Source of the DNA: a virus
Virus genome (UHGV): UHGV-0324336
Length of the DNA stretch: 45,108 bases
Direction: 5' to 3' (one strand)
Shown: positions 4,936 through 5,245 of the stretch, piece after piece
How positions within the stretch are numbered: position 1 is the stretch's first letter
Layout of the letters: every line of letters begins with the position of its first letter
Program-made: the position numbers and the translations under genes
The notes under the pieces: generated by a model
Seen by the model: the letters and a program-made list of their open reading frames with translations, nothing else
The model's database searches: none
What the model was told of the DNA's origin: nothing

Positions 4936-5010
4936 CTGGAGCGGGCAGCGGGAATCGAACCCGCATCATCAGCTTGGAAGGCTGAGGTAATAGCCATTAT
5001 ACGATGCCCG
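4936..5010 (-). tRNA. tRNA-Gly (anticodon UCC)
   Basis: Manual cloverleaf of the reverse complement: acceptor GCGGGCA/TGCCCGC, anticodon loop CUUCCAA, T-loop TTCGATT, encoded CCA; sequence matches recalled host glyT. Confidence 0.75.
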
Positions 5011-5013
5011 CAT

Positions 5014-5089
5014 ATGGTGCCGACTACCGGAATCGAACTGGTGACCTACTGATTACAAGTCAGTTGCTCTACCTACTGAGCTAAGTCGG
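5014..5089 (-). tRNA. tRNA-Thr (anticodon UGU)
   Basis: Manual fold: acceptor GCCGACT/AGTCGGC, D-arm GCTCAGTAGGTAGAGC, anticodon loop CUUGUAA, T-loop TTCGATT, CCA encoded. Confidence 0.75.
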
Positions 5090-5091
5090 CA

Positions 5092-5168
5092 CTGGACCGC
5101 CACCGGGGACTCGAACCTCGCACACTCAACTTAAAGGGTTGACGCTCTTTCCTGATGAGCTAGTGGCG
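5092..5168 (-). tRNA. tRNA-like gene with atypical anticodon loop (CCUUUAA; Lys-UUU-like but C33); possible pseudo- or non-canonical tRNA
   Basis: Manual fold: acceptor CCGCCAC/GTGGCGG, D-arm GCTC…GAGC, T-loop TTCGAGT, CCA encoded, but position 33 is C and T-stem has an A·C mismatch. Confidence 0.5.
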
Positions 5169-5169
5169 G

Positions 5170-5245
5170 CTGGTGGCCCTTGCTGGATTTGAACCAGCGA
5201 CCTGGCGATTATGAGTCGCTCGCTCTCACCACTGAGCTAAAGGGC
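5170..5245 (-). tRNA. tRNA-Ile2/Met type (anticodon CAU), ileX/ileZ-like
   Basis: Manual fold: GGCCCTTTAGCTCAGTGGTGAGAGC…CTCATAA…GGTTCAAATCC…GGGCCACCA; closely resembles recalled E. coli ileX (lysidine tRNA-Ile2). Confidence 0.75.

Follow-up and report, generated by a model that had tools for sequence, protein, structure and literature searches.

Four tRNA genes lie head to tail on the minus strand of the virus genome UHGV-0324336, a stretch of 45,108 nucleotides (nt) that we refer to as the window, and ARAGORN finds no others in it. Read along that strand, they are an Ile2-CAU tRNA of the lysidine type (ileZ/ileX-like, 5171-5246), a tRNA called as Lys-UUU (5093-5169), a Thr-UGU tRNA (5015-5090) and a Gly-UCC tRNA (4937-5011). 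The first is labelled Met/Ile2-CAU by ARAGORN and tRNA-Ile by PGAP. All four match the Rfam tRNA model RF00005, with Infernal scores of 72.5, 44.4, 73.8 and 64.9 bits in the same order against a gathering score of 29 bits, and with whole-window E-values from 2.5e-6 to 2e-14. A CCA end is encoded in each gene and is followed by a spacer of G (5170, 1 nt), GU (5091-5092, 2 nt) or UAU (5012-5014, 3 nt) before the next gene begins. A first-pass annotation made from the sequence alone had described four late-strand tRNAs with 1-3 nt spacers and had assigned three of them to Gly-UCC, Thr-UGU and Ile2/Met-CAU types. ARAGORN and Rfam agree on the arrangement, ARAGORN matches the three identities, and its minus-strand run, named beforehand as a check, calls tRNAs at all four places. 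The coordinates first given for the cluster (4936-5245) and for the remaining, atypical tRNA (5092-5168) are each one nucleotide too low and become 4937-5246 and 5093-5169.

The atypical gene, which we call the lysine-like tRNA, combines a lysine anticodon with a body of the arginine family. The Infernal alignment gives it a perfect 7-bp acceptor stem (CCGCCAC/GUGGCGG), hence a C1-G72 pair, followed by the discriminator U73. The D-arm is GCUC/GAGC with G18, G19 and A20, the anticodon stem UCAAC/GUUGA encloses the 7-nt loop CCUUUAA, and the T-stem carries an A51.C63 mismatch beneath the T-loop UUCGAGU. The loop thus has a C in place of the U33 of the model, a nucleotide that is among the most highly conserved known in biology. 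The C at position 33 had already been read by hand, and realignment, which might have restored a U33, keeps it. Similarly, the acceptor stem is as perfect as first described; the T-arm is not, owing to the mismatch. The C1-G72 pair that had been singled out is real, but it is a trait of a whole phage Arg-tRNA family and not peculiar to this copy.

The match to RF00005 is full-length (model positions 1-71), and the lysine-like tRNA otherwise looks like a canonical elongator: A37, the GG of the D-loop and the UUCGA of the T-loop are in place, and the 7/4/5/5-bp stems are paired except at A51.C63. C33 is found in all lysine-like copies. With the host lysT family the gene shares the anticodon UUU in the context U36-A37-A38; its overall identity to lysT is 58%, confined to universal tRNA positions, and its discriminator is U73, not A73. 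The window copy shows neither the disrupted stems nor the flank-like drift of a pseudogene, and the A51.C63 mismatch is also present in canonical relatives. Minimum-free-energy folding was discarded as evidence on the structure: it fails to return a cloverleaf even for the exact copy of thrU, and its values are uninformative here.

The cluster is genuine, of an ordinary kind and present in existing annotation. A 551-nt region recurs at 100% identity in many complete E. coli genomes; it is covered over at least 80% of its length in 341 of 5426, where PGAP names the tRNAs tRNA-Ile, tRNA-Lys, tRNA-Thr and tRNA-Gly, and three sequenced phages carry it as well. The Thr member is 100% identical to thrU of the host thrU-tyrU-glyT operon, a match present in 5421 of the 5426 genomes, and the Gly member is 100% identical to host glyT. 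The lysine-like gene taken by itself is more widespread, with a copy at 90% identity or above in 798 E. coli genomes (279 at 99% or above, 474 at 95-99% and 45 at 90-95%).

Genomic setting of the cassette

The flanking open reading frames (ORFs) bear out the placement of the cluster between Q and the holin gene. Upstream, a 229-aa ORF (5441-6130, minus strand) encodes the antiterminator Q (Pfam PF06323 Phage_antiter_Q, E = 3.3e-89), as it is also annotated in the database records that match the cluster. A tR'-like terminator, recognized as a G+C-rich hairpin followed by a T run (AAAACCCGCCCACAAGCGGGTTTTTTG, 5354-5377, minus strand), separates Q from the tRNAs. The region of the PR' leader and the tR' hairpin (5352-5425, minus strand) gives Rfam matches below threshold to isrK/isrJ, small RNAs encoded downstream of Q in Salmonella prophages (22-25 bits against thresholds of 37-50). 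A predicted sigma-70-like promoter, TTGCAA-17 nt-TATTAT (5256-5284, minus strand), found as a consensus match in a promoter scan, ends 9 nt before the first tRNA, and a 'putative tRNA promoter' is annotated at the equivalent place in the VT2-Sakai record. Downstream by 293 nt, a 71-aa ORF (4429-4644, minus strand) is assigned as the holin gene, the first lysis gene, from the ORF and its position; records matching the cluster have a 216-nt holin gene in the same position, about 290 nt downstream. Within the 293-nt leader that separates the Gly tRNA from the holin gene lie two perfect inverted repeats, at 4805-4877 (16 bp, 41 nt between the arms) and 4885-4930 (11 bp, 24 nt).

The order of genes runs from Q through the tRNAs and the lysis genes to the end and start of the window, then to terminase, head and tail, and finally, on the opposite strand, to the integrase side and the early-left operon. 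This order suggests that the window is a circularly permuted complete lambdoid phage genome. Above-threshold Rfam matches to the sok antitoxin RNA, the DicF small RNA and a cspA-type thermoregulator leader, at 8811-8985 (minus), 17567-17618 (plus) and 1902-2318 (minus), respectively, represent cargo typical of Qin/Rac-like prophages. Two further genes look defence-related: a Lit-like protease gene (11305-12228, minus strand; PADLOC Lit, E = 1e-18; Pfam Peptidase_U49) and a gene for a 459-aa protein with a RES domain and, below threshold, a HEPN/RES domain at its N-terminus (9464-10843, plus strand). Self-immunity against a phage-encoded tRNA-targeting nuclease was considered and rejected as a role for the cassette, since PADLOC and Pfam returned only these two genes; neither is linked to the cassette in other genomes.

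Ancestry and relatives of the lysine-like tRNA

The closest canonical relatives of the lysine-like tRNA are phage arginine tRNAs, to which it is 80-93% identical. Identity to argN of Stx phages is 80-84% (80.5% for argN of VT2-Sakai), and identity to an Arg(UCU) tRNA of an IMG/VR contig (L325) is 88%. Outside the loop, the nearest canonical relatives reach 91-93% and have the same anticodon stem, the closest being the Arg(UCU) tRNA of L307, at up to 93%. The acceptor CCGCCAY/RUGGCGG and A20 are those of the argN/Arg(UCU) family; the C35 of an arginine anticodon is replaced by U35. Pattern scans of IMG/VR show that phage tRNAs with this C1-G72 acceptor form a large family, comprising Arg-UCG (argN, loop CUUCGAA), Arg-UCU (CUUCUAA or CUUCUAC), a Salmonella Arg-CCU (L134) and the lysine-like form. 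C1-G72 is a trait of the whole family and U73 of the argN branch. In an alignment of 40 distinct members, 97.3% of the cells in cloverleaf pairs are paired, seven pairs show compensatory changes and all five anticodon-stem pairs covary, far above shuffled and slid controls.

The body motif GCGCCACUAGCUCA..GGAUAGAGC is shared with ordinary bacterial tRNA-Arg genes, and the lysine-like tRNA thus has an Arg-type body. A pattern scan of genome contigs mostly met ordinary tRNA-Arg genes of the GCGCCAC type from many phyla, besides the Salmonella Arg-CCU gene. An orthologous cassette, Ile2-Arg(UCU)-Thr-Gly with identical 1-, 2- and 3-nt spacers, occurs in two IMG/VR contigs and a few E. coli genomes. 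Together with the closest Arg(UCU) relatives, this cassette indicates that the lysine-like tRNA is an Arg(UCU) gene after U33C and C35U. On the aligned sequences, then, the loop reads as having changed from CUUCUAA to CCUUUAA, and the anticodon class from Arg to Lys, within one gene family. Seven changes fall on the branch from Arg(UCU), namely these two and five others. A version of the lysine-like anticodon arm with U, A or G at position 33 has no match among 2.9 million viral contigs and three matches, none of them a tRNA, among 241 million metagenome records. An intermediate with C33 and the arginine anticodon UCU gave a single match, which is not a tRNA.

We further note a pattern at nt -1, which in the window is position 5170. 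Family members with U73 all have A or G at nt -1, many members with A73 have U, and at least 17 A73 sequences have A. Pairing between nt -1 and N73 would allow an 8-bp acceptor stem, as in tRNA-His.

Codon usage, counted over the 11,632 codons of the window's long ORFs, separates the members of the cassette. AUA, ACA and GGA are used 8.8, 13.9 and 11.7 times per thousand, against general E. coli averages of about 4-5, 7 and 8, and the Ile2, Thr and Gly tRNAs fit a supplementation of these over-used A-ending codons. The lost Arg(UCU) tRNA would also have fitted such a supply, with AGA and AGG at 5.6 and 4.6 per thousand, several-fold above host averages of about 2 and 1. An extra tRNA-Lys does not fit, AAA being used at 35.8 per thousand, close to the E. 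coli average of about 34; AAG stands at 16.4 against about 10. The host itself has a median of six lysT copies per genome.

Less regular forms of the gene are common. In the sampled rows of the 95-99% identity band, most copies are of two types, PPompW and Evi, and lie in an Ile2-X-Arg(UCU) cluster. A 1-nt deletion in the D-stem and a G3.U70 pair mark the PPompW type, and C7.A66 and G3.U70 mark the Evi type; both are without PGAP annotation in those rows. The Evi type looks like a chimera of a lysine-like 5' part with an argN 3' part, the junction of which creates C7.A66. A copy in the Stx2c phage JNE082642 (L008, 395-475) has lost the whole anticodon arm and retains the acceptor, D and T arms. 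G3.U70 is the classic alanine identity pair; besides the PPompW and phage Evi types it is present in argN of phage 2851 (loci L002, 2582-2657; L009, 401-477; L005, 401-477).

A sister lineage, represented in many IMG/VR contigs and in Yersinia phage YeP1, shares the acceptor and T-arm and has the anticodon stem AUAAC/GUUGU (L003, 2501-2578; L076, L255, L278, L280, L293, L353, L369 and L374). Position 33 is always A in this lineage, except for C33 in L369. Its loops include CAUUUAA, CAUAUAA, CAUUGCC, CAUUGCU, CAUUGAU and CAUUAUU as well as loops of 3-6 nt, with anticodons UUU, UAU, UUG and UUA and, in some, a pyrimidine at position 37. The YeP1 copy is labelled 'Pseudo' by tRNAscan. Loop positions 34-38 take at least nine forms against a nearly constant acceptor, D-arm and T-arm (between L003 and L280, three of seven loop positions and about one of 71 body positions differ), a contrast that is in part an ascertainment effect, since the sequences were gathered with exact body patterns. 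No Ile2-CAU gene neighbours the UAU form, a hint that AUA may truly be its codon. In the family as a whole, U33 has thus been lost at least twice, and the anticodon has changed repeatedly.

What the lysine-like tRNA may do

The object to be explained is a tRNA gene with an intact fold, an arginine ancestry, a fixed C33 and high conservation. The first-pass annotation had offered a degenerate copy, a non-canonical decoder or an anti-defence element; sequence analysis narrows these three proposals, each of which is still live, and leaves them undivided. The reading that we tentatively prefer is that of a downgraded former arginine tRNA, kept as a folded member of the cassette that is processed by RNase P. 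The cassette would be transcribed from its own promoter and, after induction, also by Q-modified polymerase reading through tR'. RNase P would then separate the tRNAs, because spacers of 1-3 nt leave no room for anything else; separation of closely spaced tRNAs by RNase P only, and the dimeric precursors of T4, are established. U33C and C35U would have ended AGA decoding, leaving a folded tRNA able at best to read lysine codons weakly, because it lacks U33, probably lacks N6-threonylcarbamoyladenosine at position 37 (t6A37) and has U73 in place of the A73 of host tRNA-Lys. As for its charging, A20 in an Arg-type body leaves arginyl-tRNA synthetase as a possible competitor. Such a tRNA may have been retained since it does no harm and since RNase P would need its acceptor/T-arm fold as a site in order to free the 3' end of the Ile2 tRNA upstream.

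Several features point to a downgrade. The RF00005 score of the lysine-like tRNA is 20-30 bits below those of its neighbours, and C33, A51.C63, the damaged PPompW and Evi types, the armless Stx2c copy and the apparently non-decoding loops of the sister lineage can be read as further signs. Codon usage and the lysT copies of the host create no demand for a further tRNA-Lys, C33 is a likely handicap in view of the in vitro failure of t6A modification on a U33C tRNA (PMC8887486), and the tRNA-like stable RNAs of T5 offer a precedent.

Other observations weigh against this preferred reading. Some A33 relatives stand alone, with no neighbour to process, so a role as processing scaffold does not suffice to explain the family. 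Of the seven changes since Arg(UCU), six fall at unpaired positions and the seventh is the U63C that creates A51.C63. The family has gained the UUU anticodon on at least three independent occasions (CCUUUAA, CAUUUAA and CUUUUAA). The canonical Arg(UCU) sibling is present in 34 of the 5426 E. coli genomes and is thus far rarer than the lysine-like form with its 798. In IMG/VR, the lysine-like tRNA is 100% identical in 72 of 83 occurrences. Over 82 loci it has 2.4 mismatches per kb, against 2.7 for Ile2, 9.5 for Thr and 4.7 for Gly, and against 27-81 in the upstream flanks and 14 and 3.5 in the downstream flanks. The cassette also sits in at least nine upstream and eleven downstream contexts at the 90% identity level. 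Variants within the lysine-like group amount to nine events, five in stems and three of those disruptive; they do not avoid stems, but are too few to judge constraint.

A possible alternative, to which we give clearly less than even weight and less than to the preferred reading, is that the gene is a nuclease-proof spare tRNA-Lys, made in large amounts during lytic growth, charged by lysyl-tRNA synthetase (LysRS) through its UUU anticodon and able to read AAA and AAG after host tRNA-Lys has been destroyed. PrrC attacks host tRNA-Lys(UUU), cutting it 3' of U33 (PMC2610378), and is stated to need ct6A37, the cyclic form of t6A37 (PMC12409363). The AriB nuclease of the PARIS defence system cuts tRNA-Lys at U36AAUC|A41, an activity that is lost with U39A and reduced with A41C or U16C (PMC12409363). 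The tRNA-Lys of phage T5 rescues infection from PARIS (PMC11464382; PMC12409363), and that of SP15 rescues from PrrC170, which extra E. coli tRNA-Lys does not (PMC11555353), so both are proven counter-defences. The lysine-like tRNA has C16, G39 and U41 where the host has U16, U39 and A41, the three positions at which mutation impairs AriB, and its C33 sits at the PrrC scissile bond. It therefore resembles nuclease-resistant phage tRNAs in having the same UUU anticodon with the determinants altered. AriB would miss it because all three known determinants are changed, and PrrC would miss it because that enzyme cuts 3' of U33 and depends on modifications of the loop, among them (c)t6A37, which C33 reportedly blocks: the E. 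coli TsaBCDE enzymes failed to modify a U33C tRNA to t6A in vitro (PMC8887486). A C33 that blocks t6A37 is a concrete route by which PrrC resistance could arise.

Also in favour of a spare tRNA-Lys are the low identity of the body to lysT, the lack of any reason in codon supply for an extra tRNA-Lys, the fixation of C33, with no tRNA bearing another base at position 33 of the arm in the viral and metagenome scans, the high conservation of the gene across many mosaic contexts together with its prevalence, and the second, independently non-U33 lineage with UUU (CAUUUAA). Against it, given the effects of U33 and U73 on decoding and on LysRS, C33, the absence of t6A and U73 together should make a poor decoder and a poor LysRS substrate. 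Moreover, T5 tRNA-Lys evades nucleases while keeping U33 and A73, so loss of U33 is not required, and a 2026 structure shows TsaBD without a base-specific contact to U33 (PMC13276492). The co-resident Thr-UGU tRNA is host-identical and keeps the AriB site UAAUCA, and the cassette is thus not a complete anti-PARIS kit. Structurally damaged variants, finally, are common.

A broader form of this proposal treats the loss of U33 as adaptation and not decay, the combination of an Arg body, UUU and C33 (A33 in the sister lineage) giving temperate phages of enterobacteria a lysine tRNA that would escape t6A37 and hence PrrC-type cleavage and that is free of all known AriB determinants. We give this slightly less weight than the narrower form.

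It is quite improbable that the product does not decode at all and acts instead as a tRNA-like RNA in its own right, for example as a decoy for tRNA-targeting enzymes or a competitive inhibitor of them; the body would then matter, and the loop would be free or diversifying. The sister lineage, with its near-invariant body, its nine or more forms at loop positions 34-38 and its solitary genes, speaks for this. Overexpressed viral tRNAs as AriB inhibitors were raised as a possibility by the PARIS authors (PMC12409363), and T5 encodes tRNA-like stable RNAs. Against this stand the exact-match collection patterns, which inflate the conservation of the body, the lack of a known target, and the window copy itself, with its regular 7-nt loop, clean anticodon and A37.

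Least probable is that the lysine-like tRNA tunes the programmed -1 frameshift of the tail assembly chaperone, where a slippery G-GGA-AAG would be read by Gly-UCC and Lys-UUU: GGGAAAG does lie at 35048-35054 (minus strand), in the frame G GGA AAG at the junction of a gpG-like ORF (35030-35443) and a gpT-like ORF (34614-35048), but a prophage that shares the cassette exactly and differs in its tail module lacks GGGAAAG at the chaperone genes. Across the window the heptamer occurs 11 times against 6 expected, which does not amount to enrichment, and the mechanism is without precedent. The heptamer is of the lambda type, and the tRNAs that read it, Gly-UCC and Lys-UUU, are both phage-encoded.

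Whatever its role, a natural non-U33 tRNA gene that is fixed and conserved in many E. coli prophages offers a test of the part played by U33 in decoding and in t6A37 formation, and it is a clear case of a change of anticodon class from Arg to Lys within a gene family. Were it a spare lysine tRNA, tRNA-based counter-defence, so far a feature of T5 and other large virulent phages, would extend to ordinary temperate ones, and a new escape route would be suggested, that of blocking the modification the nuclease needs. If the loss of U33 were an adaptation, a prophage-borne counter-defence would be present in about 5-15% of E. coli genomes, and the argN-like family would be a scaffold whose loop is repeatedly rewritten in an arms race with anticodon nucleases. 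If the gene is instead a relic, dead members can last long in tightly packed tRNA cassettes, and automated annotation names a 'tRNA-Lys' from the anticodon alone.

Comparison with known systems

The first-pass annotation had likened the cluster to the ileZ-argN-argO genes of Stx phages, and the parallel proves to be true homology, given the ileZ-like first tRNA and the similarity of the lysine-like tRNA to argN. As in 933W and VT2-Sakai, the cassette lies downstream of Q and tR', has its own promoter and begins with Ile2-CAU, and C1-G72, U73 and A20 are shared with argN. It differs in having UUU and C33 where argN has UCG and U33, and in being continued by copies of thrU and glyT where the Stx phages have argO and stx. 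A full-text literature search on ileZ, argN and argO returned nothing relevant and no paper on these prophage tRNAs. The Arg(UCU) cassettes (L325 and L347; E. coli strain 504838) are closer still, with the orthologous order Ile2-X-Thr-Gly and the same spacers and anticodon stem. Their Arg(UCU) copies, unlike the lysine-like tRNA, keep the loop CUUCUAA with U33 and C35, have A or G at position 73 and are annotated as tRNA-Arg.

The tRNA-Lys(UUU) genes of T5 and SP15 are likewise phage-encoded, have the UUU anticodon and depart from the host tRNA at the determinants of AriB cleavage. That of T5, though diverged, is a true tRNA-Lys with a host-like acceptor, A73 and U33, whereas the lysine-like tRNA has an Arg body, C33 and U73; resistance to cleavage is demonstrated for the former and predicted from sequence for the latter. 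The phage tRNAs described by van den Berg et al. 2023 similarly have an anticodon loop that departs from the host at or near the cleavage site, but those cases keep U33, and the paper has no mention of position 33 or of prophage tRNAs (PMC10264068). A natural C33 that is functional is known from eukaryotic initiator tRNA-Met, where it is an anti-determinant for the bacterial and yeast t6A enzymes (PMC8887486); that tRNA is a P-site initiator, unrelated to the lysine-like tRNA in sequence and role. The T5 record (L380, 30.2-34.0 kb), in turn, lists 'tRNA-like stable RNAs with unknown functions' (RNA1, RNA2 and RNA3) within its tRNA clusters, and thus provides a precedent for non-decoding members of such a cluster.

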